Of a DNA stretch of 49,820 nucleotides, positions 10,875 through 27,768 are shown piece after piece. Position 1 is the first letter of the stretch. Each line of letters starts with the position of its first letter. The notes under the pieces are model-generated. The model was not told the origin of the DNA. It searched no databases and was given only the letters and a program-made list of their open reading frames with translations. Made by a program: the position numbers and the translations under genes. The stretch lies in IMG/VR virus record IMGVR_UViG_3300014824_000003; one strand, written 5' to 3'. This stretch comes from a virus.

Positions 10875-10890
10875 TCTTTCACCGTCCTTT

Positions 10891-11488: not shown

Positions 11489-11500
11489 AGAATCACCGCC

Positions 11501-12016: not shown

Positions 12017-12052
12017 AGTTCCACCTTTCTGGCCGTTTATCCGGCCTATTAG

Positions 12053-12068: not shown

Positions 12069-12083
12069 GTAAACAGATTACAG

Positions 12084-13055: not shown

Positions 13056-13294
13056 TCGCTTATTTCCTCACTTTCCTTTTTGTCGAACATTCCCAGGCGT
13101 GCGCCCAACTCAACGCACCCCAAAACAATTTGTGTCAGGTCTTTTCCAGATACACCAGCAAATTCAAAACTTAACGTCGATTCGCCGTTCGGTTCGTCTT
13201 TGATATGACAGAAGAAACCTTTTTCGACGGTTTTACTTGTTCCGTCGGTGTAATTGAAAACAAAATTCTTGATTTCCTTTTCCTGATTGCTCAT
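13052..13294 (-). CDS. Hypothetical protein (80 aa)
   Basis: ORF track; SD AAAGGAGCG. Confidence 0.5.
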   Translation of the reverse strand: MSNQEKEIKNFVFNYTDGTSKTVEKGFFCHIKDEPNGESTLSFEFAGVSGKDLTQIVLGCVELGARLGMFDKKESEEISE

Positions 13295-13298
13295 GTTT

Positions 13299-13586
13299 TC
13301 ACGCTCCTTTTGCTGGAAGTTCCAGTTCTGAAACGTGGAACAAATGTCCTAACGCTCCGATTTTTCCATAAACAACTTCATTGTCGATCGGAACTTTGAA
13401 GTCTTGTGATCCGGTTCTAATCGCATACATCATTGCGGCCGGGTTTCCGTTGCTGTTCATCCAGGACGTGCCGCCGTTTACATTTTCCCAATAGTCTTCG
13501 ATTGTGAAATCGGCACCGCCGAACTTCTGAATGTCTTTTCTAATCTTCACTGTTTGTCCGGCAAATCTGAATTTTTCTCTTTTCAT
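13299..13586 (-). CDS. Hypothetical protein (95 aa from ATG 13586)
   Basis: SD GAAAGGAAATAAGCGA precedes ATG 13586. The track ORF extends to 13637. Confidence 0.5.
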   Translation of the reverse strand: MKREKFRFAGQTVKIRKDIQKFGGADFTIEDYWENVNGGTSWMNSNGNPAAMMYAIRTGSQDFKVPIDNEVVYGKIGALGHLFHVSELELPAKGA

Positions 13587-13689
13587 TCGCTTATTTCCTT
13601 TCTTCGCTATTAAATTGTAAGTGCTTATTTCCAACATCAGCCGCCGATTGCAGTCGGTTGTTCCGGCTATATGTCGAAGTGCTGGCGGC

Positions 13690-13845
13690 CTATCTGGCCG
13701 CCGTTGCGGTCTGTTTCTCTTGCAGATCCAGGCCGATAATAATTCCCTGGATAAGATTTTTCTTTTCCGGTGGAAGTGACATAATCACGCGGATAAAAGA
13801 TTTGTCTTCGTCGCGTACTGTTGTAATGTTCTTTTCGTTTGCCAT
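13690..13845 (-). CDS. Small protein (51 aa), first gene of the early minus-strand operon
   Basis: Hand translation MANEKNITTVRDEDKSFIRVIMSLPPEKKNLIQGIIIGLDLQEKQTATAAR. SD AAGGGGG lies 8 nt upstream. Confidence 0.45.
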   Translation of the reverse strand: MANEKNITTVRDEDKSFIRVIMSLPPEKKNLIQGIIIGLDLQEKQTATAAR

Positions 13846-13874
13846 AAGTACGGCCCCCTTTCTGTTGTTTTTTA

Positions 13875-13998
13875 GTTCGTCAACCGCTTCTGTTTGGTTG
13901 ATAAGCCAAGTATATATGTTTTATTTTGGTTTGTCAACCATTTTTACAAAAAATATAAAAATATTTTGGTTGACGAACCAAAGAAATAATGATATTAT
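13875..13998. promoter_or_regulatory. Immunity switch: divergent promoters with TTGGTT-N4-AACCAA-type operators
   Basis: Plus strand: TTGACG(13970)-17-TATTAT(13993). Minus strand: TTGACA(13937-13932)-17-TATACT(13914-13909). Palindromes at 13966-13981 (perfect), 13927-13940, 13894-13909 and 13875-13886 overlap the -35 boxes. Confidence 0.6.
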
Positions 13999-14027
13999 GT
14001 GTTCATAAAACGAAAGGGGGTGACGTG

Positions 14028-14486
14028 ATGAATGAAAGAATCCGTTGCTTACGCGAAGAAATAGGTCTTTCGCGCGCGGCTTTCGGTCAAAGAATAGGTG
14101 TAAGCGGCGACGTAATAAATAATTTAGAACGTGGTCGTGTAGAGATAAAAGAACCTATGATAAAACTTATCTGTTCCGAGTTTTCCATAAATGAAGAATG
14201 GTTAAGAACCGGATCCGGAGAAATGAAAGTAAAAAGTCCTTCTGATACTATGGATCAGTTAAAAAAGGAATTTAATCTTGACGATTTCAGTTATAATCTG
14301 GTTTACCAGTATTTGAAATTAGACGCCGATCAGCGTCAGACGGTAAGAGATTTCTTTTATAATGTGGTTGAATCAGGAAGTATGGACGAAGACTTGTTCG
14401 GTGATGTACCGAAAACGCCGGAAGAACTGGAAAAGGAATTTCCGCCGGTCGAAGAAAAACCGGTTCGGAATAAAGAAACGGGCTAG
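14028..14486 (+). CDS. CI-like XRE-family repressor
   Basis: HTH LSRAAFGQRIGVSGDVINNLERGR plus a C-terminal domain. SD AAAGGGGGTGA. Divergent from the early operon. Confidence 0.75.
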   Translation: MNERIRCLREEIGLSRAAFGQRIGVSGDVINNLERGRVEIKEPMIKLICSEFSINEEWLRTGSGEMKVKSPSDTMDQLKKEFNLDDFSYNLVYQYLKLDADQRQTVRDFFYNVVESGSMDEDLFGDVPKTPEELEKEFPPVEEKPVRNKETG

Positions 14487-14597
14487 GCGTTTAAAACGCC
14501 CGGCCTTGCCTATAAGGCTACCAGATCAACAAGTATATCTTCGTCCTTCCATTAAATTTCAAATTATAATACATTGTTTTGCAATTTGCGTAATAGA

Positions 14598-14620
14598 CCG
14601 CGTAAACGCGGCGGCTTTTG
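14598..14620 (+). terminator. Terminator-like hairpin CCGCG-TAAA-CGCGG followed by a T run
   Basis: Read directly; followed by cggcttttg. Confidence 0.4.
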
Positions 14621-14736
14621 TATTCTATGTATTTAATTATCATTAGCACCACCCCTTTTCCAGAAAAAGGCCGGGCTAAACTATTATAAATTTAATGGTC
14701 GGCAAGGTATACTGGTAATTTTTGGAAGGTGATATT

Positions 14737-15093
14737 GTGGTTTTAAAAATAATAATTGGTGCCGTTGTCGTCTTCCTGGCCGTGTGGGCCTGGAAGATCC
14801 GAATATATTTGAAATGGCAAAAGAAGGCGAAGGCGAATGTTGCGCCGTTCTATCGTTTCCCGGAAAGAATTCACCAGTTACCAGCCCAGAAAGAAAAGCT
14901 TCGTCAGGCAAAAGAAGAAAGCTTCATAGTTCACTTCCAGGACGAAGAAAAAGGGCTTGCAAGGATAAAAGCAGAATCCGATCCGGAAGAAGTCTGGTGT
15001 AATCTGGGAATGTGCCAGTGTGCAACATACAAGGCGGATCACCGTCCTTGTAAACACATATATAAAATCGCCCTGATGAAAGGGCTTATATAG
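14737..15093 (+). CDS. Membrane-anchored protein with SWIM-type zinc finger
   Basis: GTG 14737 follows SD GGAAGGTGA. TM helix LKIIIGAVVVFLAVWAW. CQCATYKADHRPCKHIY fits CxCxnCxH. Confidence 0.55.
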   Translation: MVLKIIIGAVVVFLAVWAWKIRIYLKWQKKAKANVAPFYRFPERIHQLPAQKEKLRQAKEESFIVHFQDEEKGLARIKAESDPEEVWCNLGMCQCATYKADHRPCKHIYKIALMKGLI

Positions 15094-15107
15094 AAAGGAA
15101 TAGGACT

Positions 15108-15659
15108 ATGAAAAAGAAAGTGGTGATTTTTATGTCGATTCTGTCAATTTTTGCTGGTCTGACCGGTTGCGGCAAATCAAAAGAACCGGTCGAAAGCAAT
15201 AAGGAAAGTGAAGTTGTCAGTGAATCAGCCGTCCAAGAATCCGAGCAGACGGAAGAAGCAACCGAAGCGGCTCCGGAAGTTGAACATCGTACTGGTGACG
15301 CGATCGTCGGCGTAAGCGATAAAGATATTTCAGATCTTGATCCTGTATTCTGGAAAAGTGTTGTTAATGACGCAACCGGAAAGTGGCGCTATGCTACTAT
15401 TTCCGACGATGTAAATATTTCGGATTATGCGTTATCGTATTACAAGGAATATTTCAAGTCTGACGACGAAGTTCACGCAATTATAAACTTCGCCAATAAA
15501 ACAACAACGCGTATCAACTGTGGCGGTGATCGTCTTCTTATTAGCGTACTGGACTATGTAGACGGTGAAGAACATGACGCGAAGAAAATGTTCGGCGGAA
15601 CTCCGCTGGAATCTTATTGTGTTTACCTGGATAACGGGGATATTGAAAAGACGGAATAA
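15108..15659 (+). CDS. Lipoprotein (candidate superinfection-exclusion moron)
   Basis: Signal peptide with lipobox LSIFAGLTG-C. Lies between the repressor and the integrase. Confidence 0.7.
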   Translation: MKKKVVIFMSILSIFAGLTGCGKSKEPVESNKESEVVSESAVQESEQTEEATEAAPEVEHRTGDAIVGVSDKDISDLDPVFWKSVVNDATGKWRYATISDDVNISDYALSYYKEYFKSDDEVHAIINFANKTTTRINCGGDRLLISVLDYVDGEEHDAKKMFGGTPLESYCVYLDNGDIEKTE

Positions 15660-15683
15660 GGTATTTTGTAACCGAATAAAAAC

Positions 15684-15715
15684 AGCCGGTCAACGACTGC
15701 AATCATCGACCGGCT
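15684..15715 (+). terminator. Hairpin AGCCGGTC...GACCGGCT after the lipoprotein gene
   Basis: 8-bp stem, 16-nt loop, weak T tract. Confidence 0.4.
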
Positions 15716-15721
15716 TTAATA

Positions 15722-15835
15722 CCAGGCAACCGAAAAACGGCCTTCTGATATTGGAAATAAGCACCCTATATTATAGCAAAGAAGGCCGGAAAAATCAATC
15801 GGCTTTCTTTTTTATACCCTTTTTTCGGTGCCTGG
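15722..15835. repeat. Nested inverted repeats upstream of the serine recombinase gene (attP or regulatory candidate)
   Basis: Outer arms CCAGGCAACCGAAAAA (15722-15737) and TTTTTCGGTGCCTGG (15821-15835). Inner arms CGGCCTTCT (15738-15746) and AGAAGGCCG (15780-15788). Confidence 0.5.
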
Positions 15836-15850
15836 GGAAAGGGGCTATTT

Positions 15851-17857
15851 ATGGCATACGCCAAAGCGAAAAAACACCTGAAAATCTGGACGAAGAAAAA
15901 GGCGGCGTTATACGTCCGCGTTTCCACCAGATACCAGGTCGATAAAGACAGTCTTCCGTTCCAACGGAAGAAATTAAAAGAATATTGTAAATTTCTAGGG
16001 CTTGAAGATTATGTAATTTTTGAAGACGACGGATATTCAGCAAAGAACACGGAACGTCCGCACTTTCAAGAAATGATGTCACGCGTCAGATCCGGCGAAT
16101 TTTCACACCTGATCGTGTGGAAGGTGGATCGTGTTTCCCGAAATCTTCTGGACTTCGCGGCAATGTACCAGGAATTAAAAGATCACAAGGTCACGTTTAT
16201 TTCGATGAACGAACAGTTCGACACTTCAACCGCGATCGGTGAAGCTATGCTTAAAATCATTCTGATTTTTGCGGAACTTGAAAGAAACATGACGTCCGAA
16301 CGTGTAACCGGAATCATGCTGGATCGTGCCGAACAAGGATTGTGGAACGGCGCACGTATGCCGGTTGGTTATCGTTGGAACAACGAAACAAAGTTCCCTG
16401 AACCGGATCCGGAAGAAGTGAAGATCGTTCAACTTATCTTTGACAAATACGAAGAATGGAAATCAAGCATAAAAATAGCGCGATACCTGAATAACAACAA
16501 TTTCAAGTCAAAGCGCGGCGGCCAGTGGACTTCGAAGCTTATCCACGATATTATTCGGAATCCGTTCTATATCGGAACATACCGCTATAATCTGCGTGAA
16601 TCCGGGCGCGGCCCATTGAAGCCGGAAAGTGAATGGATCGTCCGTGAAAACAATCACCCGGCGATCATTGACAAGGCGCAATTTGACCGGTGCAATAAGA
16701 TCATGGATCAGAACGGATCCAGCCGCGACACGTCCGATCTACGCGCCAGGAAGTACGTTCACACATTTTCCGGACACCTGGTTTGTGGCAAGTGCGGCGC
16801 TAATATGATCGCGTCGAAGGATCGCGCCAGAGCGAACGGCTGGCGGCCGTCAATGTATCGTTGCGCCCAGCGTTCCCGAATGTTGGATTGCGACAATTCC
16901 AGGACGATAAATGAATCTTATATCGGGCCTTTTATATTTAATTATATCGCGAACCTTGCCAGGGTTCAGAAGAATTTTAAGAATATAACCACGGTTGAAA
17001 AGCTGGAAAGGGAACTTCTGAAAGGTGAAACGTTCGACGGTGTGGCCGGAATACTTCCGGAAGGCTTAAATTTGACCTTCCAGGCACTTTCTTTTCGTCA
17101 GGTAGGGAATGGAACCTATATTCCGGATGTTGACTTCCTGGGCGATTCTGACGGCGCCAGTGACCGCGATCAGATCGAATTGTTGAAGTCAGAAATCGAG
17201 AAGTCAAAAAATGCTGTCACCAGATTAACGGACGTTTATCTGTTCGATCCGGATTCCATGACGAAGGAAGAATTCGCCACAAAGAAAAAGGAACTGTCAA
17301 AGAAAATTGAAGGCATGGAACGCCAGCTTGCGGATCTTCTGGACGATTCCGGGAACGATGATCTGGCCGACATGTCATTTATCAAGAAGGCTTCCGCGTT
17401 CCTGGTGGCTCAAAGGATCGTTTCAAAATCCTTCGTCGATTATGTCGGCATGGCCCAGGAATTAGACAACGAAATCCTGAAAGACTTTATCGACCAGATC
17501 GTCGATCAGATCGTCGTCCTGGACGGCCGTGTCCAGTCAATCACGTTCATAAACGGATTAAAGCACGAATTCCGGTACGCAACGCCGGCGGAATTGCCAG
17601 TGTGTCAGAAATGCGGCGGACGTATCGGTTCAACGTGCGGCTGTCGGACAAGGACGTTCGATTTCTCCGGTAAGCGTTACCAGCGAATAAAAGTCGGTGA
17701 TCCGCGCGACACGCTTCACGGGAAGAAGAATCCGGTTTGTCCGGAATGTTTCGCCCATGAAGGGCGCTGGCACCATTGGAATTGCAAGATTGAAACGTGT
17801 CCGATCTGTGGCGGACGCCTGGCGGAATGTGAACACGGGCCGAATGGTAAGAAATAG
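15851..17857 (+). CDS. Large serine recombinase (integrase) with an extra C-terminal Cys/His-rich module
   Basis: Resolvase domain ALYVRVSTRYQ...DGYSAKNTERP...VWKVDRVSRN, recombinase domain, zinc ribbon CGKCG...C, coiled coil, then about 90 aa with 4 CxxC pairs. Confidence 0.85.
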   Translation: MAYAKAKKHLKIWTKKKAALYVRVSTRYQVDKDSLPFQRKKLKEYCKFLGLEDYVIFEDDGYSAKNTERPHFQEMMSRVRSGEFSHLIVWKVDRVSRNLLDFAAMYQELKDHKVTFISMNEQFDTSTAIGEAMLKIILIFAELERNMTSERVTGIMLDRAEQGLWNGARMPVGYRWNNETKFPEPDPEEVKIVQLIFDKYEEWKSSIKIARYLNNNNFKSKRGGQWTSKLIHDIIRNPFYIGTYRYNLRESGRGPLKPESEWIVRENNHPAIIDKAQFDRCNKIMDQNGSSRDTSDLRARKYVHTFSGHLVCGKCGANMIASKDRARANGWRPSMYRCAQRSRMLDCDNSRTINESYIGPFIFNYIANLARVQKNFKNITTVEKLERELLKGETFDGVAGILPEGLNLTFQALSFRQVGNGTYIPDVDFLGDSDGASDRDQIELLKSEIEKSKNAVTRLTDVYLFDPDSMTKEEFATKKKELSKKIEGMERQLADLLDDSGNDDLADMSFIKKASAFLVAQRIVSKSFVDYVGMAQELDNEILKDFIDQIVDQIVVLDGRVQSITFINGLKHEFRYATPAELPVCQKCGGRIGSTCGCRTRTFDFSGKRYQRIKVGDPRDTLHGKKNPVCPECFAHEGRWHHWNCKIETCPICGGRLAECEHGPNGKK

Positions 17858-17859
17858 CA

Positions 17860-17890
17860 CAAGGGGCGTTCTGCCCCTTGCTTTTGTTTT
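17860..17890 (+). terminator. Terminator CAAGGGGC-GTTCT-GCCCCTTG followed by a T-rich run
   Basis: 8-bp perfect stem followed by cttttgtttt. Confidence 0.65.
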
Positions 17891-17891
17891 A

Positions 17892-18035
17892 TTAACAATT
17901 CCCATTTACTACCGGTTTGACGATCTCATAATCAACGAATGTCTTCGCCATGATTTCGGCCAAATCCTTATCTATTCCCTGGCTGATTAAGTTTTCCTTA
18001 TATGCTTTCTTTGCTTTCTTCTCTGCTGTTGTCAT
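17892..18035 (-). CDS. Small protein (47 aa, MTTAEKKAKKAYKENLISQGIDKDLAEIMAKTFVDYEIVKPVVNGNC)
   Basis: Hand translation. Driven by promoter cassette copy A with SD AAGGAAAGGCGG. Confidence 0.5.
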   Translation of the reverse strand: MTTAEKKAKKAYKENLISQGIDKDLAEIMAKTFVDYEIVKPVVNGNC

Positions 18036-18048
18036 TTTTTATTTCCGC

Positions 18049-18098
18049 CTTTCCTTAACTTCTGATTATATTATACACTCTAAAGTGTAATATGTCAA
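18049..18098 (-). promoter_or_regulatory. Promoter-operator-leader cassette, copy A
   Basis: TTGACA-17-TATAAT with palindrome TACACT-N4-AGTGTA (18074-18089). 47/50 identical to copies B and C. Confidence 0.7.
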
Positions 18099-18140
18099 GT
18101 AATTCTATATATTTTATTTACAAATTTCACTTCAAAGTGA

Positions 18141-18169
18141 AAAAAGCCGCCATTTCTGGCGACTTTTTT
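18141..18169. terminator. Bidirectional terminator hairpin GCCGCC-ATTTCT-GGCGAC flanked by A6 and T6
   Basis: Read directly; ends the 20337-18168 minus-strand operon. Confidence 0.6.
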
Positions 18170-18719
18170 ATTTGAAATATCCGCGTTCGACCTTTGATTT
18201 CAGGAATTCGTTTATTTGCGGCGTTTTGTAACCGGAAGAAATACGTTCTTCGCAATATGCCATAATGTCAAGGGCGGTTTTTTTATAAGTCGATCGGATC
18301 TGTTCTTCTGTTGCGTATTCGTCCCGAATGTATCTTGTCATAAAAAGCACAATGTCTGTATGGCAACAAGGACAAGTTGAGTATGGCTTGACCTTTGTTA
18401 TATCGTCGTGGCCGAACGGGCCGATCTCGTATTTTGATACATCTATCGACATTTTCCCGGTTCTGTTTGTGTAAATGACGGAAACTTTCCAGCCGAAAAC
18501 GATTTCTTCATCGTCCGAAGTTTCGAATTCTTCAACAACGCAATTATGTATTTCTGCGTATAATTCCGCCTTTCTTTTATCTCGGAATACGCCCAAAATC
18601 GAAGCGTCGTAAGGATCGCCTGGAACAACAATATAAACCTTTATAGTTTCATAATTCGATGGATTTTTATAAACACCTGGAATATATTTGTTTTCTTTAT
18701 TTACCATATCTTCGGCCAC
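18168..18719 (-). CDS. Hypothetical protein (183 aa)
   Basis: ORF track. Confidence 0.55.
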   Translation of the reverse strand: MAEDMVNKENKYIPGVYKNPSNYETIKVYIVVPGDPYDASILGVFRDKRKAELYAEIHNCVVEEFETSDDEEIVFGWKVSVIYTNRTGKMSIDVSKYEIGPFGHDDITKVKPYSTCPCCHTDIVLFMTRYIRDEYATEEQIRSTYKKTALDIMAYCEERISSGYKTPQINEFLKSKVERGYFK

Positions 18720-18970
18720 ACTTCCCCGGCAATCGGAACGCCTTCGGTGTGCCTTTCGATGTAAGCTTCACGATTGCGCGCTTCTATGTTTCCAGCGGAA
18801 GTATAGTTGAAATCAGCGTCGAATTCAGTTCCGCAAGCGATACATTCCCAGGAAGCCGTTGTGTCTGGCCCTTGATAGAATCCGGCCGATCGAAGGGCCG
18901 CGCCTTTTCTTTTCAAGATCACCATTCCGCCGCATAGTGGACATTTCTTTTTGTCATATAATGCCGACAT
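18701..18970 (-). CDS. Zinc-ribbon protein (89 aa)
   Basis: CPLCGG...CIACG. Confidence 0.55.
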   Translation of the reverse strand: MSALYDKKKCPLCGGMVILKRKGAALRSAGFYQGPDTTASWECIACGTEFDADFNYTSAGNIEARNREAYIERHTEGVPIAGEVWPKIW

Positions 18971-19245
18971 TATTCTTCACCTTCTTCGTAGTAATAGCGA
19001 TCGTGAATTTGCGAAATGGTTATGTCGCTATTTTGTGGAACAGTCACGGTCAAATCACAATCCGTCATAAAATCTTCATTAGTGCAAGTAATAAATCCAC
19101 ATTCCATAGATCCAGCGTCTTCCTTTCGCTTCCTTCGCTCTGTCAGATCACCGTTTCTTTTTATTCCGTATATGTTCGTGTATTGACATAACATATTATA
19201 TTCCAACTTTCCGCCACATATCGGACATTTATTAAGAATCTTCAT
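18970..19245 (-). CDS. Zinc-ribbon protein (91 aa)
   Basis: CPICGG...C...C. SD AAAGGGAAAGTGA. Confidence 0.55.
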   Translation of the reverse strand: MKILNKCPICGGKLEYNMLCQYTNIYGIKRNGDLTERRKRKEDAGSMECGFITCTNEDFMTDCDLTVTVPQNSDITISQIHDRYYYEEGEE

Positions 19246-19537
19246 TCACTTTCCCTTTCTTCAAAAGTTTTTTATATCTTCTGGAAGTTTTCAGAATTTC
19301 ACATTCAAGTTCCGGATCCCACCATCTATTATCCGGGCGGAACTCACATTCATTACACGGCCATTCGTTGGATCCGTTTTTCAATCCAGGGCAACCGCGA
19401 CATTCGATTATCATTCCACTTGAATTTATTTCTGGTTGAATAAGGAAGTTAATAATAACCGCTACGATAAATATAATAAATATGGCAATCGGGGCGCCAA
19501 TGATAACGCCGGCAATAATCAAAATCGTTTTTATCAT
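19232..19537 (-). CDS. Membrane-anchored Cys-rich protein (101 aa)
   Basis: TM helix ILIIAGVIIGAPIAIFIIFIVAVIINFLI followed by CRGCPG...CNEC. SD TAAGGCGGTGG. Confidence 0.55.
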   Translation of the reverse strand: MIKTILIIAGVIIGAPIAIFIIFIVAVIINFLIQPEINSSGMIIECRGCPGLKNGSNEWPCNECEFRPDNRWWDPELECEILKTSRRYKKLLKKGKVNEDS

Positions 19538-19549
19538 AGTTCCACCGCC

Positions 19550-19831
19550 TTAATGCCTGGATATTTCCCAGGGTTCGGAAGTATATCGATTTATGAAGTC
19601 GTTTACATTCTTCGCGTATTCTTCCAGTATCTCTTTTGATTCTTCGATTGCTCCAGGAAGTGATTCGGCTTTAAGCTTTTGGCCGTCAATTTGAAGCTGG
19701 GCGCACGATAGGAACCAGCCGTCCAGGTGAATAATTCTGTGGATCGTGACCGTGATTCCGTTCGTCGTTGTGTAGAATATTGTTCCGGTTTCAACCGGCT
19801 TTCTATAGCTTGAATTACTGATAAATTTCAT
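19550..19831 (-). CDS. Hypothetical protein (93 aa)
   Basis: ORF track; SD GGAAAGGAAAA. Confidence 0.5.
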   Translation of the reverse strand: MKFISNSSYRKPVETGTIFYTTTNGITVTIHRIIHLDGWFLSCAQLQIDGQKLKAESLPGAIEESKEILEEYAKNVNDFINRYTSEPWEISRH

Positions 19832-19870
19832 GTTTTCCTTTCCGGGAAAAGCCTTGAATTTACAAGAAGA

Positions 19871-20095
19871 TTACAACGTCTTTTTTACTCGCACGATAGG
19901 ACACCCGAAAGTTTGAGTAAAAAAGGTCATGGGACGTCCCAGTTCTTCGGATTTTTTCTTTACCCAGGAACGGGCTTTCGCCATAAAATAGAACTGTCTG
20001 TTCGGCTCAAATTCCGGTGCTGGCTTGCTTATGTCTACGGTGTCAAGATCTAAGTCTTTCAGATTGTCTATATATCGTAAATCTATTAAATTCAT
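19871..20095 (-). CDS. Hypothetical protein (74 aa)
   Basis: ORF track; SD GAAAGGGAAA. Confidence 0.5.
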   Translation of the reverse strand: MNLIDLRYIDNLKDLDLDTVDISKPAPEFEPNRQFYFMAKARSWVKKKSEELGRPMTFFTQTFGCPIVRVKKTL

Positions 20096-20118
20096 GTTAT
20101 TTCCCTTTCGATTTGATT

Positions 20119-20337
20119 TTAGAATTCTTCGCCGGATTCCTTATCCACGAAAATGATCTTAAATTCGCAATTAAGGAATTCCGCGATCTGTGACAATTCC
20201 GATTCCTTGAAATCGTCACGTTTTAATTTGTTCGAAAAGTTCTGGCGCGTCTGCCCCGTCCCTTCTGCGACTTCTCCCATTGTTACGCCGCGACGTCCAA
20301 CAATCAGGCGGATCTTTTCGGCTGTTGTCATTCCCAC
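20119..20337 (-). CDS. Small HTH regulator (Cro/Aca-like), divergent from cassette B
   Basis: 72 aa with HTH-like VTMGEVAEGTGQTRQNFSNKLKR. Its own promoter overlaps a TACACT half-palindrome. Confidence 0.55.
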   Translation of the reverse strand: MGMTTAEKIRLIVGRRGVTMGEVAEGTGQTRQNFSNKLKRDDFKESELSQIAEFLNCEFKIIFVDKESGEEF

Positions 20338-20369
20338 GAAAACACCTTCTTTCTTAAATTGATATATGT

Positions 20370-20398
20370 ATTTTACATTTTACACTTTATAATGTCAA
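20370..20398 (-). promoter_or_regulatory. Promoter of the HTH operon (TTGACA-17-TAAAAT) overlapping a degenerate operator
   Basis: Minus strand has TTGACA at 20398-20393 and TAAAAT at 20375-20370. The site TACACTttatAATGTC lies at 20381-20396. Confidence 0.55.
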
Positions 20399-20445
20399 GT
20401 TGAAATAAATATTTTATTTTTTAATTGTTTTCTTTACATTATATA

Positions 20446-20495
20446 TTGACATATTACACTATAAAGTGTATAATGTAATCAGAAGTTAAGGAAAG
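20446..20495 (+). promoter_or_regulatory. Promoter-operator-leader cassette, copy B
   Basis: TTGACA(20446)-17-TATAAT(20469), palindrome TACACTataaAGTGTA at 20455-20470. 50/50 identical to copy C. Confidence 0.7.
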
Positions 20496-20508
20496 TGAGG
20501 AATTAAAA

Positions 20509-20958
20509 ATGTTAGATAAGAACGGAAAAGAAATGGTAACTGGTTGTGTGGTAGAAATCAAAAACGCATACTTCAAAACAGATAACGGACTTTACTTCAT
20601 TGAAAAGTCGCCGGAAGAACTCGGCTGGCTCGGAAGTGATTATTGTCTTCTTAAATTAAAAAGAAACGGTCAGTTAAGCACCGCAAAGAAAAATATTTGT
20701 TTCTGGCCGATTATGTCATTCGTAAGTGATCGAATGAAATCCATTGAAGCCAACGCCTGGAATAAAGAACATGCGACAATCGAAGTCAGAACAGACATTG
20801 ATCGCCAGTATATCAAGGAATACTTCAAGGAAGAAGCCGAACGTCTGGATCCGATGATCGAACACATGAAATATAATTTCGGTGAAGATCACCCGGAAAC
20901 AATTAAACAGATAAAGCTTCGCGATCATCGAATGGAAGTCAGCGATTCAATCCAGTAA
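20509..20958 (+). CDS. Hypothetical protein (149 aa)
   Basis: ORF track; SD AAGTGAGGAAT. Confidence 0.6.
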   Translation: MLDKNGKEMVTGCVVEIKNAYFKTDNGLYFIEKSPEELGWLGSDYCLLKLKRNGQLSTAKKNICFWPIMSFVSDRMKSIEANAWNKEHATIEVRTDIDRQYIKEYFKEEAERLDPMIEHMKYNFGEDHPETIKQIKLRDHRMEVSDSIQ

Positions 20959-20963
20959 ATGAA

Positions 20964-20987
20964 GGGCGGCCAGTGCGCCGCCTTTTA
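20964..20987 (+). terminator. Terminator GGCGGC-cagtgc-GCCGCC followed by TTTT
   Basis: Read directly. Confidence 0.6.
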
Positions 20988-21053
20988 TACACTTTATAAT
21001 GTAATATAGAAATAATATTTTTACATTTTTATTATTTTCCTTTACATTTTTAC

Positions 21054-21103
21054 TTGACATATTACACTATAAAGTGTATAATGTAATCAGAAGTTAAGGA
21101 AAG
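21054..21103 (+). promoter_or_regulatory. Promoter-operator-leader cassette, copy C
   Basis: TTGACA(21054)-17-TATAAT(21077), palindrome at 21063-21078. An upstream half-site TACACTttatAATGTA lies at 20988-21003. Confidence 0.7.
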
Positions 21104-21116
21104 GCGGTAAATAAAA

Positions 21117-21341
21117 ATGACGAAATTTGAAATCGGAAAAACTTATTCAATGCGTAGTATCTGCGATCATGATTGTGTGTGGACTTACACCGTAACAGCC
21201 AGAACGGCGAAGACAATCACCATTTCGGACGGTGAAAAGGTTCAGAAGTGCCGGATCATCAAGGCGGCTTCTGAATACAGAAACGCCGAAACCGTATATC
21301 CACTGGGCCAGTATTCAATGGCCCCGGCATTAACAGCATAA
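21117..21341 (+). CDS. Hypothetical protein (74 aa)
   Basis: ORF track; SD AAGGAAAGGCGG. Confidence 0.6.
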   Translation: MTKFEIGKTYSMRSICDHDCVWTYTVTARTAKTITISDGEKVQKCRIIKAASEYRNAETVYPLGQYSMAPALTA

Positions 21342-21389
21342 TATTTTTTAAGCCGGCGGCCTGGCGCCGCTGGTGGAAAGGTTAAGTAT

Positions 21390-21794
21390 ATGAGAAGAAA
21401 ATATAATAGAGAACAAAAAGAGTATATCGAAACGAAGAAAGCCCTGGAAGCGTTGGAAGCCAGGGAAAAGGAAATGGAAGCCGCTTTCGTGAAAAGCCTG
21501 GGTGTTGTAAACGAAGACGGAACGGTTCCTTCTCGCACATGGGCGATTGATGATGATTCGATCGCGGATCAGGCAATCGACGACTTCGGCGCACTCGTTG
21601 AAGACTGCGGACTGTGGGCGGAATTATGCAAGGCGAAGGAAGAATTTCAGGCGGCGGAAGAAAAACTTGTGAATTACGCGATTTCGCTTGTGCCTTGTAG
21701 GCGTGAACGTGAAATCTTAACAACTTCGGCTTCTAACTTGAAATACCGGATCAAGATCATAGAAACGGTTATGAAGTTCGATTCAACACTTTAA
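21390..21794 (+). CDS. Hypothetical acidic protein (134 aa)
   Basis: ORF track. Confidence 0.55.
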   Translation: MRRKYNREQKEYIETKKALEALEAREKEMEAAFVKSLGVVNEDGTVPSRTWAIDDDSIADQAIDDFGALVEDCGLWAELCKAKEEFQAAEEKLVNYAISLVPCRREREILTTSASNLKYRIKIIETVMKFDSTL

Positions 21795-21831
21795 CATTTG
21801 CGGCGGCTCCGGCCGCCAGGAAGGAAAGACA

Positions 21832-22062
21832 ATGGAAGAATGGAAAGAAGCTCTTGAAGCGGCTGTGAATAAAACAATAGGCGCCTGGAATAAGGCAAGT
21901 GAAGCCTTCTTATCTCACAATCAGAAAGGTTTTGAACACTGGCACAACGAATTTAATAGATATGTGGAAACTTTTTCACATGCGATCGGAATTCCGGAAG
22001 AAGATTTTATTTCTTACTTGGAAGAAAAAGGACTGTATAGAACAGAAAAGAAAGGTGAATGA
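21832..22062 (+). CDS. Hypothetical protein (76 aa)
   Basis: ORF track; SD AGGAAGGAAAG. Confidence 0.55.
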   Translation: MEEWKEALEAAVNKTIGAWNKASEAFLSHNQKGFEHWHNEFNRYVETFSHAIGIPEEDFISYLEEKGLYRTEKKGE

Positions 22063-22316
22063 ATATGTATAAGAATTATTTCGATGAATTAAAGGTTAGG
22101 CTTTTTGAATCTTGTGATTGGTGCAATAAACAAGCGAACGACGGAGATCGGAACCGAAATCATGTGAACTATGGTTCTGCTTCTGCTATCGCCCGGATCA
22201 TGACGGATTTCGGCCACAACGTACACATTCCAGTCTGGGACGACAACGGATTCCTTCGGATTCCGAAAATTGTAATTGACGGCGAAGTGTTTATTGATTT
22301 TGAAAAATCAGAGTAA
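22059..22316 (+). CDS. Hypothetical protein (85 aa); the last codons run into iteron array 2
   Basis: ORF track; ATGA-type overlap with the upstream gene. Confidence 0.55.
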   Translation: MNMYKNYFDELKVRLFESCDWCNKQANDGDRNRNHVNYGSASAIARIMTDFGHNVHIPVWDDNGFLRIPKIVIDGEVFIDFEKSE

Positions 22317-22367
22317 ATCAGAGATAATCAGAGTTTATCAGAACAAATCAGAATATATCAGAAATAA
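22308..22367. repeat. Second centromere-like iteron array, inverted relative to 10891-10970
   Basis: tcagagtaaa tcagagataa tcagagttta is the exact reverse complement of the 30-bp super-unit of array 1. Three degenerate TCAGAA units follow. Confidence 0.85.
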
Positions 22368-22373
22368 AAAGAA

Positions 22374-22414: not shown

Positions 22415-22606
22415 TATTTCTTCGTCAAAAATCATTTAGGGCGAAATCCGGGCAAATCCGGAAGCCTGGCGGCCATTTTACGACCGATTATCCAGGTGGA
22501 TTTTCAGAAGAATTTTGTTCCCCCCTTAAACCCCCTTCCCTCTGCGCCATTGTATCACATATTTTCTAAACTGTAAAGTGTATTTTGTAAATTATATCAC
22601 TTACAA

Positions 22607-23797
22607 TTAACACATTTTGTTTACAAGCGCCTGAATGGTTGCGTAATTGTAACCGGCGGCTTCAAGCTTTGCCTTTCTCTGTGGGTTATTTCCCCATTTT
22701 CCGGCCAGAACTTCCTTCGCGATTTCCTCGTTGGATTTCTTCGCCGGTGCGGCTTTCTGATTAACGATCGCCTGGATCGCGTTGTAATCGTAGCCAGCGG
22801 CGGAAAGTCTGTTCTTTCTGTCATCACCATTTCCCCAGGCTCCAGCCAGAACTTCCTTCGCGATTTCCTCGTTGGATTTCTTCGCCGGTGTGGCTTTCTG
22901 ATTAACAATCGCCTGGATCGCGTTGTAATCGTAGCCAGCGGCGGAAAGTCTGTTCTTTCTGTCATCACCATTTCCCCAGGCTCCAGCCAGAACCTCGTTC
23001 GCGATTTCCTCGTTAGATTTCTTCGCTGGTGCCGGTGTGGCTTTCTGATTAACAATCGCCTGGATCGCGTTGTAATCATAACCGGCGGCGGAAAGTCTAT
23101 TCTTTCTGTCGTCGCCATTTCCCCATTTTCCGGCCAGAACTTCCTTCGCGATTTCCTCGTTGGACTTCTTCGGCTGTGCCGGTGCTGGCTTTGATCCGCC
23201 CAGTTCTGCCGGAAAATCTCTGTAACAAATATTCATGTCAAGTCCGGAAGATCCGATTCCGTCACATGATCCCTTGCTGGTGTACTGCCAAATATCGAAG
23301 TTTGAAACGTTCGGCTTGTTTCCAGGCTGTCCGTTGTTTACTCCGTACTTTGCAACCCATTTTGTGTATGAATCAACGCCCACCAGGTAGTTATTCCACC
23401 AGTTTTCGTTAGCATACACGCCAGGCATGTAACCAGCGGCCTTCACGGCTTCACAAAAGACTTTTACAACGTCCTTCGCAATTCCGGACTGGCTGGCTTC
23501 CTCAACGTCGATATAAAGCGGATAACTAAGCTTGTAGCCTTTCACCAGACGAAGCGCGTGATCTGCTTCTGATTTTGCCATATCTGTATTTTTTGCGTAA
23601 GAATACAGATAAACGCCGAACGGAATCCCTAGTCTGGAACACTCGTCGGCGTTTCTCTTGAACATTTTGTCGTCCTGGCTTTCAATGTCGGAACCATAGC
23701 CGCAACGCATAAGCACGCCGCCGATTCCAGACGCCTTTACCTTGTCCCAGTCAATAACGCCATTATGAACTGATACGTCAATCATTTTTACTTCCAT
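22607..23797 (-). CDS. Endolysin: GH25 muramidase plus four CW_7 cell-wall-binding repeats (Cpl-7-like)
   Basis: N-terminus IDVSVHNGVIDWDKVK...DIWQYTS resembles GH25. Four copies of KKSNEEIAKEVLAGxWGNGDDRKNRLSAAGYDYNAIQAIVNQKA. ATG 23797 follows SD AGTGAGGAA. Confidence 0.85.
   Translation of the reverse strand: MEVKMIDVSVHNGVIDWDKVKASGIGGVLMRCGYGSDIESQDDKMFKRNADECSRLGIPFGVYLYSYAKNTDMAKSEADHALRLVKGYKLSYPLYIDVEEASQSGIAKDVVKVFCEAVKAAGYMPGVYANENWWNNYLVGVDSYTKWVAKYGVNNGQPGNKPNVSNFDIWQYTSKGSCDGIGSSGLDMNICYRDFPAELGGSKPAPAQPKKSNEEIAKEVLAGKWGNGDDRKNRLSAAGYDYNAIQAIVNQKATPAPAKKSNEEIANEVLAGAWGNGDDRKNRLSAAGYDYNAIQAIVNQKATPAKKSNEEIAKEVLAGAWGNGDDRKNRLSAAGYDYNAIQAIVNQKAAPAKKSNEEIAKEVLAGKWGNNPQRKAKLEAAGYNYATIQALVNKMC
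22610..23170. repeat. Four tandem 141-147 bp repeats encoding the CW_7 modules (three are near-identical)
   Basis: The protein repeats R1-R3 differ at only a few residues. Confidence 0.85.
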
Positions 23798-23801
23798 GAT
23801 A

Positions 23802-24032
23802 TTATTCCTCACTTTCTACTTCCGGAATACCGGCAACACTTGTTAAAATGCTTACAACGCCAGAAACTACGGCGGAAGATACGACGATCTTCCAGTCTAC
23901 GGCGGCTACAACGGTGCTTGTGCCGATCACCGCAACGGCTGTCTGTGCCATTGTTTTAACGGCGCGAATAGCCGCTTTCTTTGCCCATTCCTTTGTGTTT
24001 ACTGACGCTTTCAAAACTGAATTCTTAAACAT
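23802..24032 (-). CDS. Holin (LL-H/phi LC3-like)
   Basis: 76 aa with two hydrophobic helices and a charged C-terminus PEVESEE. Directly upstream of the endolysin. Confidence 0.7.
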   Translation of the reverse strand: MFKNSVLKASVNTKEWAKKAAIRAVKTMAQTAVAVIGTSTVVAAVDWKIVVSSAVVSGVVSILTSVAGIPEVESEE

Positions 24033-24051
24033 AGTCTTCTTTGCTCCTTTC

Positions 24052-24315
24052 TTACATTCCGACGCCTGATCGAATTAACGTGAATAAAATCCCGACCGCC
24101 GCTGTGATGATTGCCGCGACGACTGTTCGGAAAAGCCATTTGTTCGATTCTTCCAGGCTGTCAACCTTTGTTGTTGCATCTTCAAGATCGTTCTGGATCC
24201 GAAGAATCGCTTTCTCGTTCTCGTATGTTTTCACCTTTGCGTTGTTGTAGCCGTCAAGCTTTTCTTCGATCTTGATAAGGCGATCGAGAACTTCTCTTTC
24301 AAATTCTGCTTCCAT
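24052..24315 (-). CDS. xhlA: XhlA-like hemolysin/lysis accessory protein
   Basis: Coiled-coil N-terminus plus a C-terminal TM helix WLFRTVVAAIITAAVGILFTLI. Precedes the holin. Confidence 0.6.
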   Translation of the reverse strand: MEAEFEREVLDRLIKIEEKLDGYNNAKVKTYENEKAILRIQNDLEDATTKVDSLEESNKWLFRTVVAAIITAAVGILFTLIRSGVGM

Positions 24316-24372
24316 CGGCGAACCCCCTTTCCCTGAAAATAGACAATTAAAAATAGCCGGGATAATTCCCGA

Positions 24373-25509
24373 CTATGAATTGTTGCGAATACGAAAAGAA
24401 AATTCGTCAATGATTTTTCTTAAAAGATTTCCGGCCGTGAAATGCTGGATCAGGCCGAAATAGCTTTGCATTGTGTTATTAAGTTTTTGAAAACCTATTT
24501 CGCAAGCTTCAAAAAGCTTTTTAATGAACTTTATCCGGCGGAACATACGCTTTCGCGTGCTTTTCCTCATTCGGATAAATTTCGGTGAAATCTGCGCCCC
24601 TACGAACGTGACCGGAAGCCACGCCGGGCGAATACTGGTTTTATTATTTAGTTCCAGGTGAAGGCGTTCTTCCAGGAAGTTTTTTATATTATCCAGGATT
24701 CCCTTCAATTCCTCTTTATCCGGCCACAAGATAATAATGTCGTCCACGTATCGAATAAACAGATGGATTCCAAGTTCGTGTTTACAGTATTGATCTAATT
24801 CGTTTAGATAGATATTCGCGAACATCTGGCTTGTAAGGTTTCCGATTGGCATACCGCGATCAAAAAGCCAGTCTTCTTCGTTGCAAAGTTCCGGTTGCAC
24901 GCCAGCCGGAAGGCCGAACGCCGTATTTTCACAATTTATCAGTTTGTAAAGGTCGCGAAGAATTTCTTCGTCCTTGATTTTTCGTGATAATATATCCATC
25001 AAAACCGCGTGATCCACGCGATAGAAATATTTTGAAATGTCAAGCTTTAACACGTACCAGGTTTTTCCACTTCGATTCACTTTTCGAAGCCAGCGTTGAA
25101 GCTGATCGCGCGCTTTTGTTGTGCCTTTCCCTTGTCTACAACCGTAACTGTGCGTTATAAACTGCTTATCGAATAACGGGTTTAAGATCTGGTAATAGGC
25201 CCATTGAACAACGCGATCCGGATATTCCAGCGCCATAATAATTCGCGGCTTCGGTTCGTAAATCTGTTTCTTCCGGTATCGTCCGACTTTGTATGAAGAT
25301 TCTGTTTTTCCGGGAATCTGGTTCCCTTCTTCGTCAAAAACCGGATAATAAGTAAGTCGATTAAGTAAATCAATGATCCCTTCTTCCCTATGTGCCGAAA
25401 ACTTCAAATTTTCGTCGCGGTAGTGTTTACATTGCGAAGCGTTTTTGTCAGCTTCAAGAATATTTTCAAAATTGACAATATCGCTATGCTTTACATCAAA
25501 GGTCTTCAT
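24373..25509 (-). CDS. DGR reverse transcriptase
   Basis: YVDD catalytic box (IRYVDDIIIL) and the DGR-type motif PIGNLTSQMFANIYL. ATG 25509 follows SD AAAGGAAT. The track ORF starts at TTG 25515. Confidence 0.9.
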   Translation of the reverse strand: MKTFDVKHSDIVNFENILEADKNASQCKHYRDENLKFSAHREEGIIDLLNRLTYYPVFDEEGNQIPGKTESSYKVGRYRKKQIYEPKPRIIMALEYPDRVVQWAYYQILNPLFDKQFITHSYGCRQGKGTTKARDQLQRWLRKVNRSGKTWYVLKLDISKYFYRVDHAVLMDILSRKIKDEEILRDLYKLINCENTAFGLPAGVQPELCNEEDWLFDRGMPIGNLTSQMFANIYLNELDQYCKHELGIHLFIRYVDDIIILWPDKEELKGILDNIKNFLEERLHLELNNKTSIRPAWLPVTFVGAQISPKFIRMRKSTRKRMFRRIKFIKKLFEACEIGFQKLNNTMQSYFGLIQHFTAGNLLRKIIDEFSFRIRNNS

Positions 25510-25720
25510 TGACAAAATTCCTTTCTTTGGAATATGCGCCCAGGTTTTCGGCCGTAGGCGCGGCGCTACCCGTGAAACCCTTCCCTGTCTTCGTACCGGT
25601 ACTAACTAACTTGATAGCAACGTTAATATTTCCGGATATAGCACCCGGAACGGAGATAGATCCCTTTCCCTTTCTTGCACTGTGAAGCGTCCTTGAACGC
25701 TCCCTTCTGGCTAAAAGGGT

Positions 25721-25835
25721 AAGCGGAGAAAAAGCCGTGGTTCGTCCTGACGTTCGAACGTTCGTTGTTCAAGTTCAACGCGGAAGGGCCAGCGTTCGAA
25801 GTGTTGTTGTAACTGCCACCCACGATCGGCAAGCG
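25721..25835 (-). repeat. DGR template repeat (TR)
   Basis: 115 bp homologous to VR1 and 109 bp to VR2. By my count it has 25 coding-sense adenines and 8 AAC codons in the VR frame. The track ORF 25623-25832 is not a gene. Confidence 0.9.
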
Positions 25836-25862
25836 TTATTTGACCTATCCCCACCGCGGAAA

Positions 25863-26282
25863 TTACTTTCCGCATTTAGCTGATTCTTTTTGTGAATTGA
25901 TCCAGCCGCCGAGAAGCCGGCCTATTTCACATAACTTTTCCGAAATCAGTTTGTAACGCTTTTCGTCGATGAACCGTAAGTCATAAGAAAGATCGTTGAA
26001 TAGCCTTAATTCTTCAAGTTGAATATCCGCGTCTTGAAGTGTCGTTTTCTTGAAATACTTCTTTTGTGCCGCGATAATGTATTCTAAAAATCCGAATAGA
26101 CATTTCTTGTAATCTGTTACGAAGCCCAGTTTTTCGCTACGTGGATATTTCGACCACGTAGTATAAAGATATTTCATAAGATCTTTCGTTTTCTGCAAAA
26201 TGATAAGGCCGCTTCGTTGATCCTTCCCTTCGTTTGTTTCTGGATCCACGTTCGCCTTATGATAAAATCTTTGTTGTCCCAC
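25863..26282 (-). CDS. avd: Accessory variability determinant (Avd, four-helix-bundle family)
   Basis: 139 aa, basic and helical, MKYLYTTWSKYPRSEKLGFVTDYKK... Positioned between the target gene and the TR. Confidence 0.8.
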   Translation of the reverse strand: MGQQRFYHKANVDPETNEGKDQRSGLIILQKTKDLMKYLYTTWSKYPRSEKLGFVTDYKKCLFGFLEYIIAAQKKYFKKTTLQDADIQLEELRLFNDLSYDLRFIDEKRYKLISEKLCEIGRLLGGWINSQKESAKCGK

Positions 26283-26314
26283 TCCTGGAATTTTTCCTTT
26301 CTGTCTAAAATAAA

Positions 26315-26334
26315 GGGGCTACTACCGTAGCCCC
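26315..26334 (-). other. Hairpin GGGGCTAC-GGTA-GTAGCCCC downstream of VR1
   Basis: 8-bp perfect GC-rich stem with a 4-nt loop, 30 nt 3' of the target-1 stop. Confidence 0.65.
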
Positions 26335-26363
26335 AAACAGAACACGGTCTGTCAGATTACAGA

Positions 26364-27413
26364 TCACAATTCCATATAAGCGGAGAAAAAGCCGCGGTTC
26401 GTCCCGACGTACGAACGTTCGTTGTTCAAGAGCAACGCGGAAGGGCCAGCGAGCGAAGTGTCGTAGTAACTGCCACCCACGAACGGCAAGCGCTCACCTT
26501 CGTTGTTGATCCAGAATCCGCCGGTGTGAGTTACGCCCGTAACCGGTGCAAGGAATAATTCCTTTAAGATCTCCGGAATAGTTGTGACGCCCGTTCCGGC
26601 CGCAATATTTCCGAAGTTTGGTGAATAAGTTGATCCAGCGGCGACAGTATCTGTTGCAATTTTGAAATCCTTTGTATATTTCAAAGTTCCGGCTGTTCCA
26701 GGTTCAACAAGTGATCCGTCCGGCTTGATAGCCTTCCAGAATGTGGACGCGTCGGCGTGTGATACCTGTTTCGCGGCAAGGTTGCCGGCGAAGATCTGAA
26801 TTTCGCCGTTCTTAACACGCATACCAGAACACCACTTCCAGCAATTTCCAACCCAGTCCGCGATTCCCTGGCGTGTTCCGTCGTGGAACCATGTCGCCGG
26901 GCCTGATCCGGTCGCTGTTCTGGTTGTTCTTGTGCCGCCGGAACCGTCGCTTTCTGTTGCGGTTGTTTCGCCGGTTTCGTATGTATAGGTGTGATTCTTG
27001 CCATACTGTGTATTTCCACGCGGAACAAATCCGGATTTATAGATCAAGTGGTTAATGACCGCGCGTTCCGGAATACTCATCAGGTGGAATCCAGTTCCCT
27101 TCGCATTACAAGCCTTGACAGAATCGTCAAAGTTGATTGAAGCGCGCGGATCTACGCCAGGCCATGAATAAGCACGTCCGTTTACGATTGTGTTTAAGAA
27201 ATTCGAAATGAAGAATCGCTTGTATAACACGCCGTCAACATTGAACGCTTCGGCGACTTTTGAACTTCCGCCGGCAAAAAGCTGGGCGTTTGTGATCTGG
27301 TTAATAGGCTTCATAAAGGACGGAAGGTTCGCGTTATCCATGATAACAGTAGAACCGTAGCCAGTAAGGCCTTCCGTCGCGAATTTTAAGCTGTCAAACT
27401 GATAACTATTCAT
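26364..27413 (-). CDS. DGR target protein 1 (FGE/C-type-lectin-fold receptor-binding candidate)
   Basis: Last gene of the tail module. GRAYSWPGVDP...GFHLMSIPE...GPATWFH. The C-terminal 38 codons are VR1. Confidence 0.85.
   Translation of the reverse strand: MNSYQFDSLKFATEGLTGYGSTVIMDNANLPSFMKPINQITNAQLFAGGSSKVAEAFNVDGVLYKRFFISNFLNTIVNGRAYSWPGVDPRASINFDDSVKACNAKGTGFHLMSIPERAVINHLIYKSGFVPRGNTQYGKNHTYTYETGETTATESDGSGGTRTTRTATGSGPATWFHDGTRQGIADWVGNCWKWCSGMRVKNGEIQIFAGNLAAKQVSHADASTFWKAIKPDGSLVEPGTAGTLKYTKDFKIATDTVAAGSTYSPNFGNIAAGTGVTTIPEILKELFLAPVTGVTHTGGFWINNEGERLPFVGGSYYDTSLAGPSALLLNNERSYVGTNRGFFSAYMEL
26378..26492 (-). repeat. DGR variable region VR1
   Basis: 115 bp align to the TR with 10 mismatches, all at TR plus-strand T (coding-strand A). 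Confidence 0.9.
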
Positions 27414-27768
27414 AAATTACACCTTCTTTCAGCGCGAAAAGCGTTAATGTCACGTTGTCGATAGAGAACGGAACGGCTTCGCGTTTGATAGTAGTTTTTG
27501 AAGAATAAGGTTCTTCTTCGTTGTAGTCCGGATTTTCGACTTCGGTTTCGGTGTACTGTCTGGCCGGAATATCCACCTGGGCCACGTAGTAAAGCCCCGA
27601 TCCGGTTCCCAGCGCCCCGAATTCGTCCGAAGTAATGTCGATATGGACGTCGTAGTCTGCTTCGCGGCTTTTCAGGTTCAACATGATCTGATCGCCGATA
27701 TTAAGCCAGTTTTTATTGACAGAATAGGAAATCTTCTGTCCTTCGTTAGCTTCAACAATTTTAATCAT
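27406..27768 (-). CDS. Hypothetical tail-module protein (120 aa)
   Basis: ORF track; overlaps both neighbouring genes. Confidence 0.55.
   Translation of the reverse strand: MIKIVEANEGQKISYSVNKNWLNIGDQIMLNLKSREADYDVHIDITSDEFGALGTGSGLYYVAQVDIPARQYTETEVENPDYNEEEPYSSKTTIKREAVPFSIDNVTLTLFALKEGVIYE

Follow-up and report, generated by a model that had tools for sequence, protein, structure and literature searches.

The window analysed here is the whole of a 49,820-nucleotide (nt) stretch of viral DNA, IMG/VR record IMGVR_UViG_3300014824_000003. On its minus strand, between the tail region and the lysis cassette, lies an element with the make-up of a diversity-generating retroelement (DGR). In 5' to 3' order it consists of a target gene, T1 (26364-27413, 349 residues), a GC-rich hairpin (26315-26334), the accessory variability determinant gene avd (25863-26282, 139 residues), a template repeat (TR, 25721-25835), a spacer (Sp) of ~210 nt (25510-25720) and a gene for a reverse transcriptase (RT, 24373-25509, 378 residues). 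An earlier note, written from the sequence alone, had set out this order and had called the element a complete DGR. Each component that it listed was recovered at the position it gave, and the neighbours on both sides were confirmed; the interpretation as a DGR was right, but covered only one of two targets. The second, T2 (12084-13055, minus strand, 323 residues), lies outside the span that had been considered and is a paralogue of T1, with 37% identity (BLASTP 9e-51) and with the variable regions of the two proteins aligned.

The 3' end of T1 carries a variable repeat (VR), VR1 (26378-26492, minus strand), which aligns with the TR over 115 nt without gaps. The TR contains 25 adenines on the coding strand and all ten differences between the two copies fall on them (hypergeometric p = 6.5e-8), exactly as the earlier note had counted. 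A repeat search of the whole window located VR2 (12110-12218) at the 3' end of T2, on the same strand as the TR and 13.6 kb from it. VR2 has 109 nt in common with the TR (25721-25829) and differs from it at nine positions, again all adenines. Besides TR, VR1 and VR2 no further copy was found in the window with up to 28 mismatches allowed. Both VRs are close to the C-termini of the proteins, VR1 spanning residues 310-345 of the 349 in T1 and VR2 residues 280-315 of the 323 in T2.

Read in the VR frame, the adenines of the TR are at first and second codon positions, with 13 at each, and 2 are at the third position. Seventeen codons can vary by adenine change, giving ~6.3e14 peptide combinations, and no stop codon is reachable by changing the adenines of the TR. 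Among the 17 are the eight AAC codons that had been reported previously, a count that was reproduced exactly, as were the peptide strings quoted with it. In its own context the TR is non-coding, and just upstream of it the VR frame holds a stop codon. An open reading frame (ORF) of 69 residues over the TR (25623-25832) was rejected as spurious, being merely the TR read in the VR frame.

The RT matches the Pfam family RVT_1 (1.7e-23), and both of the motifs that had been picked out in it, YVDD and IGNLTSQ (residues 222-228), are present. The signature of DGR RTs is [I/V/L]GxxxSQ, which replaces QGxxxSP (PMC7826257). Among solved structures the best match is the DGR RT of Bordetella phage BPP-1 (8ub7_A, 1.4e-38), with the group II RTs at 1.6e-23. 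Arg89 and Ile222 of the RT align with Arg74 and Ile181 of the BPP-1 enzyme (bRT), the residues that promote adenine mutagenesis (PMC7826257). The product of the adjoining avd gene scores 99 bits against the NCBIfam equivalog DivGenRetAVD (cut-off 80) and 83.7 bits against Pfam bAvd (1.6e-23, cut-off 40), and it matches the BPP-1 Avd chains in the PDB (4dwl and 8ub7_B). The start codon of avd, GTG at 26282, is uncertain because the match to the Avd profile starts only at residue 26.

Could the RT belong to some other retroelement, such as a group II intron, a retron or a Drt/Abi system, with the repeats reflecting homology between paralogues or gene conversion between T1 and T2? The earlier note had named an RT of the group II intron or retron type as an outcome that would overturn its reading. 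The top NCBIfam match of the RT is indeed a group II intron RT/maturase (group_II_RT_mat, 131.7 bits), in a library without a DGR RT model. However, this is far under the cut-off of 300, and the models for Drt3a (64.6 bits, cut-off 200), AbiA (39, cut-off 250) and retron St85 (38.4, cut-off 235) are weaker still, while BPP-1 supplies the best solved relative and a genuine Avd adjoins the RT. An Rfam search of 24000-27600 found no intron RNA domains, and no intron or retron RNA families. Gene conversion, for its part, cannot give differences confined to the adenines of a third, invariant copy, and that copy is non-coding in place. The chance that the RT and repeats have such an origin is vanishingly small, and the RT would be classed with those of DGRs.

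The natural variation of the element was followed in IMG/VR contigs that come from several metagenomes, share ~98% identity with the window and have an identical TR and a 100% identical RT; this comparison takes the place of a read pile-up over the VRs. Including those of the window itself there are five alleles of VR1 and five of VR2. All five VR1 alleles are distinct from one another, as are all five VR2 alleles, with the TR unchanged throughout. The ten alleles depart from the TR 115 times in all; 114 of these changes are at adenines (66 A>G, 33 A>T and 15 A>C), and each of the 25 TR adenines is altered at least once. Differences away from adenine were the other finding that the earlier note had said would count against a DGR; the restriction to adenine is strict in the window (10/10 for VR1 and 9/9 for VR2), and neither of the two outcomes named in the note was seen. 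Pairwise divergence from the window is 9-16% within the VRs as against 0.3-1.9% in the remainder of T1 and T2. A sister lineage, the RT of which is 73% identical, has a TR of its own, an adjacent VR1 and a remote VR2 at the same relative position, and its VRs differ from its own TR only at adenines.

The presence of ten distinct VR alleles, with adenine-restricted differences, alongside an identical TR and RT argues that both targets have been rewritten repeatedly and recently, and indicates that the element is active in nature on both T1 and T2. The window taken alone, with one VR allele per target, gives no sign of current activity, and on that footing one might see the element as a fossil in which the VRs were once diversified and the TR/VR differences are historical. 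It is the ten alleles in genomes of such close identity, differing almost only at TR adenines, that make a fossil very improbable. In addition, all of the DGR ORFs are intact, the catalytic and mutagenesis-promoting residues of the RT are conserved, and the spacer RNA and hairpins, described below, are under purifying and compensatory selection.

T1 and T2 are predicted from homology to adopt a C-type-lectin fold. In the PDB, T1 matches 5vf4_A with an E-value of 2.1e-55, the variable regions of both proteins being aligned, and T2 matches it at 5e-33. This structure is of TaqVP, a monomeric variable protein with a C-type-lectin fold of the formylglycine-generating enzyme (FGE) type, from a DGR in a Thermus aquaticus prophage (PMC6328139). 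Both proteins also match phrog_2889, of unknown function (1e-100 for T1 and 6e-66 for T2). No Pfam or NCBIfam family was found for either, so that they are identified only through phrog_2889 and 5VF4.

T1 is the gene with which the baseplate/tail module ends. Its start and the ORF before it in the module overlap, and its upstream neighbours include a Tail_P2_I homologue, a baseplate-wedge homologue and the tape-measure gene. Because it closes this module, T1 is most likely a receptor-binding protein, its variation altering host tropism. T2 is in a different setting. It is approximately the fourth gene of an operon that runs leftward, divergently from the gene of an XRE/CI-like repressor (13989-14486, plus strand). 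The ATG of T2 and the stop codon of the ORF upstream of it overlap as ATGA, and the operon runs on into TubR/TubZ-like genes, for partition, and DnaD-like genes, for replication. From its position we infer that the operon is expressed early. Neither a signal peptide nor a distinct anchoring domain was found in T2, and in the IMG/VR search its orthologues were confined to two close lineages. The coupling of T2 into the repressor-divergent operon, the lack of a signal or anchor and the fact that VR2 is diversified as strongly as VR1 could together mean that T2 is an early, cytoplasmic binding protein diversified by the DGR, with a role in host takeover, anti-defence or superinfection for instance, and not a receptor-binding protein of the virion. 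We regard this as unlikely.

The spacer that separates the TR from the RT gene matches the Rfam motif RT-14 (RF02921) at 25580-25721, over the full length of the model (39.6 bits, E 4e-4), and the match begins exactly at the 3' end of the TR. This was the only credible Rfam match over 24000-27600; a match to HOTTIP, with an E-value of 0.55, was set aside as noise. The spacer of the window aligns poorly with the model's 3' half, and a local consensus adds long-range helices. In an alignment of 16 relatives we find 42 pairs in six helices, 20 of them with compensatory changes. The cells of this alignment are paired in 94.8% of cases, as against 41-58% when the partners are slid by 1-3 columns, and none of 500 shuffles reaches the observed value. 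Judged by this covariation, the spacer is a conserved structured RNA.

In a relative with 75% RT identity (L009) the spacer, at 9782-9943 of its contig, scores 48.5 bits against RT-14, above the gathering threshold, and the match again starts at the 3' end of the TR. The spacer of the window would best be described as a borderline and divergent relative of RT-14 and not as a formal member. The RT-1 to RT-19 motifs were defined by their proximity to RT genes by Weinberg et al. (2017), who identified RT-10 as the BPP-1 spacer and speculated that other RT motifs act in DGRs or retrons (PMC5737381). That the RT-14 match in L009 starts at the 3' end of the TR appears to tie this orphan motif to a DGR's template RNA.

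In the first helix of the spacer the end of the TR and the first nucleotides of the spacer (TCCGCTT, ACCCTTT) pair with a purine tract ~48-60 nt into the spacer. The TR and spacer of BPP-1 pair to a limited extent, which sets the priming adenosine, Sp A56, beside the first templated base, TR G117 (PMC6182149). By analogy, we predict that the purine that primes cDNA synthesis is at position 25661 of the window. The stop codon of avd is enclosed by a hairpin (25856-25873, minus strand) that has a 7-bp stem and the loop GTAA and lies just upstream of the TR. Its arms change together in the relatives, and it may be a mark of the DGR RNA's 5' part.

Both targets are followed by a GC-rich hairpin. 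The one after VR1, GGGGCTAC-GGTA-GTAGCCCC (26315-26334, minus strand), has an 8-bp stem and a 4-nt loop, as the earlier note had seen, and is followed by TTTATTTT. It is 29 nt past the TGA of T1, where 30 had been given, and 43 nt past the end of the TR/VR homology. The hairpin after VR2, CCACGC-GATA-GCGTGG (12053-12068, minus strand), has a 6-bp stem without a T run and is 41 nt past the end of VR2. In about twenty relatives the VR1 hairpin follows the VR end at +42 to +44 nt, with covariation in the stem (CTAC/GTAG, CCGC/GCGG, CCAC/GTGG and CTGC/GCAG) and a loop that is always of the form G-R-N-A, being GATA, GGTA, GGGA or GAGA. The VR2 hairpin of the relatives, CGCGC-GATA-GCGCG, is at the same distance as in the window. 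Homing in BPP-1 needs a GC-rich stem of 7-10 bp with a 4-nt GRNA loop, and in other phage DGRs the distances of the hairpins have been tabulated as 4-34 bp (PMC3240598). A GC-rich hairpin with a GRNA loop, conserved in the relatives with a covarying stem, is thus present downstream of VR1 and VR2 alike.

The structural operon ends at the VR1 hairpin, which, with the TTTATTTT that follows it, is detected by a terminator scan; it might be nothing other than an intrinsic terminator for the late (tail) operon, with no role in targeting by the DGR. This does not account for the VR2 hairpin, which has a G-R-N-A loop at a matching distance and no T run, and beyond which the operon goes on. Some relatives (L017, L109 and L110) also have a VR1 hairpin without the T run, yet the covariation of the stem, the loop class and the distance are retained. 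The lack of a T run in these cases argues for a DGR-specific role of the hairpins, and the VR1 hairpin agrees with the homing element of BPP-1 (PMC3240598). The two roles can coexist and the VR1 hairpin may also serve to terminate the late operon; that it has the terminator role only is quite improbable. We also observed one or two copies of AATCTG in the stretch that leads from the VR end to the GRNA hairpin, in both targets and in the relatives, for example CTGTAATCTG. The regions concerned, 26335-26377 after VR1 and 12069-12109 after VR2, are otherwise unrelated in their flanks, and AATCTG may be part of the signal by which the targets are recognised.

The homology between the repeats ends in an A-free block of 16 nt, GGCTTTTTCTCCGCTT, that is identical in TR, VR1 and VR2 and is followed immediately by complete divergence. 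The earlier note had likened this block to an initiation of mutagenic homing (IMH) element. In DGRs an IMH at the 3' end of the VR has as its counterpart in the TR an IMH* of different sequence, which gives homing its direction. The resemblance stands in that the homology does end in an A-free block, but the TR and VRs do not differ within it. The block is the shared part of an IMH-like element and not a discriminating IMH/IMH* pair. As it is identical in all three copies, any element that discriminates donor from recipient must lie downstream of it.

By homology with BPP-1 these observations can be placed in a mechanism. The components themselves, the adenine-restricted variation of the VRs in nature, the covariation of the spacer and the conservation and covariation of the hairpins are seen directly; the site of priming, the cDNA intermediate, the steps of homing and the functions of the proteins are inferred. 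A transcript would cover the 3' end of avd, the TR and the spacer, and this RNA would be bound by a complex of RT and Avd. The spacer would fold so that the 3' end of the TR is paired with the spacer's purine tract, AAAGGG-A-AAGGGA (~48-60 nt past the TR). Synthesis of the cDNA would then be self-primed from a spacer purine beside this duplex (25661 being the candidate), with copying beginning in the A-free block of the TR. The RT would be faithful at C, G and U and would insert any nucleotide opposite the 25 template adenines. The mutagenised cDNA would replace VR1 or VR2, the targets being recognised through the A-free block together with the GC-rich GRNA-tetraloop hairpin 41-43 nt downstream. 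Seventeen codons could vary in this way without giving rise to stops, with some 6e14 peptide variants on the ligand-binding face.

The components of a DGR for which a test gave a clear outcome are all present, the distinction between IMH and IMH* not being among them, and we put the probability that this is a canonical, currently active DGR of a temperate Clostridia/Lachnospiraceae phage, diversifying two paralogous C-type-lectin-fold proteins, at about 95%. Several points weigh against it. No IMH/IMH* difference is visible inside the block common to TR and VR. The hairpins, at 41-43 nt from the VR end, are slightly further away than the published range of 4-34 bp, the VR2 stem of 6 bp is shorter than the 7-10 bp reported, and the VR1 hairpin resembles an intrinsic terminator. 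The RT-14 score of the window spacer, 39.6 bits, is below the gathering threshold of 48.1. Among the 115 natural differences there is one C>T, and activity is deduced indirectly, from the comparison of contigs.

The element is similar to that of BPP-1 (mtd-avd-TR-brt) in many respects. The order of target, avd, TR and RT is the same, the RT of BPP-1 is the best solved match, with equivalents of Arg74 and Ile181 and the [I/V/L]GxxxSQ motif, and the Avd proteins are homologous. The two also have in common the adenine-specific variation with AAC codons in the TR, the GC-rich hairpin with its 4-nt GRNA loop after the VR, and the pairing of the spacer with the 3' end of the TR ~55-60 nt into the spacer, where the BPP-1 priming site Sp A56 is found. 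The differences are as follows. The target here is a single-domain TaqVP-like C-type-lectin protein whereas that of BPP-1 is Mtd, a trimeric three-domain protein, and the element has two targets, including one at a distance of 13.6 kb. From the VR end to the hairpin it is 41-43 nt. The common block is A-free and T-rich with no IMH/IMH* difference, in place of the (GC)14 element of BPP-1. The spacer is RT-14-like while the BPP-1 spacer motif is RT-10, and the host is a Gram-positive gut anaerobe.

In the DGR of the T. aquaticus prophage, the gene layout of which is that of BPP-1 (PMC6328139), the variable protein TaqVP is homologous to T1 (2e-55) and T2 (5e-33) and the VR regions align. That DGR is from another host phylum and has one described target, in contrast to the two paralogous targets here. 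Two VRs, with adenine-specific variation among cognate genomes, have been described in phages of gut Firmicutes, the Faecalibacterium phages Lelie, Lagaffe_CP and CP11 (PMC11792537). As in the present element, a single TR serves two VRs in one temperate phage genome; the phage lineage here is another one, and the second target is in a presumed early operon next to the repressor. Targets that are not adjacent but within 50 kb are common in phage-associated DGRs, and cases with a second target of this sort inside one prophage are on record (Wu et al, 2018; PMC5758913). Viral DGR clades of gut Firmicutes phages, mostly with tail proteins as targets, have been catalogued from the same kind of data (PMC8144416).

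The first 127 nt of the window (1-127) are 100% identical to the last 127 (49694-49820), as shown by the repeat search of the whole window, so the window is a phage genome that was assembled as a circle (or is terminally redundant), its unit being 49,693 bp. An RT 100% identical to that of the window was found on a 170-kb contig of a metagenome-assembled genome of an uncultured human-gut Clostridium, and RTs with 67-80% identity are present in Anaerocolumna, Blautia, Acetatifactor and other Lachnospiraceae genomes. The carrier of the element is a temperate Clostridia/Lachnospiraceae phage of the gut. A distant blastn search of INPHARED with the 3-kb region gave only three short and weak matches, with no close relative among the deposited phages.

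Downstream of the RT gene a terminator-like hairpin (24353-24376, minus strand), with ten pairs followed by a T run and found by consensus scan only, overlaps the RT stop codon; two holins and an endolysin come next. The endolysin (22607-23812) has 3.4 tandem copies of a C-terminal repeat of 141 nt (47 residues), which are presumably cell-wall-binding modules. Several related contigs terminate within this repeat, and for that reason it may be what breaks the assemblies. Between the recombinase, described below, and the lysis genes a family of 50-70 nt repeats, rich in AT, occurs in both direct and inverted orientation (18031-18120, 20371-20511, 20985-21121 and 22564-22613); the repeats hold perfect matches to the promoter consensus TTGACA-17-TATAAT.

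A large serine recombinase is encoded at 15851-17857. On the other side of T2 a TubZ-like tubulin GTPase gene (9226-10257; Pfam Tubulin and TubZ_C_3) is found with a small ORF for a putative DNA-binding protein (10614-10874) and, directly upstream of that ORF, an array of eight 10-bp iterons (10892-10972, consensus TAACTCTGAT), making 9226-10991 a candidate TubZRC-type partition cassette. With the recombinase, the CI-like repressor and this candidate, the genome would have genes both for integration and for plasmid-type maintenance. A second iteron array of six copies (ATCAGA + 4 nt) is 11.4 kb from the first in inverted orientation, and 36 nt of the two are perfectly complementary (compared over 10896-10980 and 22298-22372 of the window). 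One contig of IMG/VR, 3300045988_008683, has precisely the stretch bounded by the two arrays (10906-22307), with T2, the repressor and the recombinase in it, in the orientation opposite to that of the window; five other contigs are colinear with the window. The inversion of this ~10.9-22.3 kb segment is either a real recombination or a misassembly.

DGRs with two targets have already been described in phages, and the present element is a well-preserved further example. It provides a clean natural data set, with an invariant TR, several natural alleles of each VR and a strongly covarying spacer RNA, and it connects RT-14, an orphan motif of Rfam, with the template RNA of a DGR. The two diverged targets have in common only the VR, a short downstream motif and the GRNA hairpin, so that the data set could help to define the minimal signal for recognition of a target in trans. 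The position of T2 in a presumed early operon is the sole feature that may point to new biology. If T2 were indeed a protein other than a component of the virion, this would be a phage DGR that serves a purpose other than the switching of tropism.

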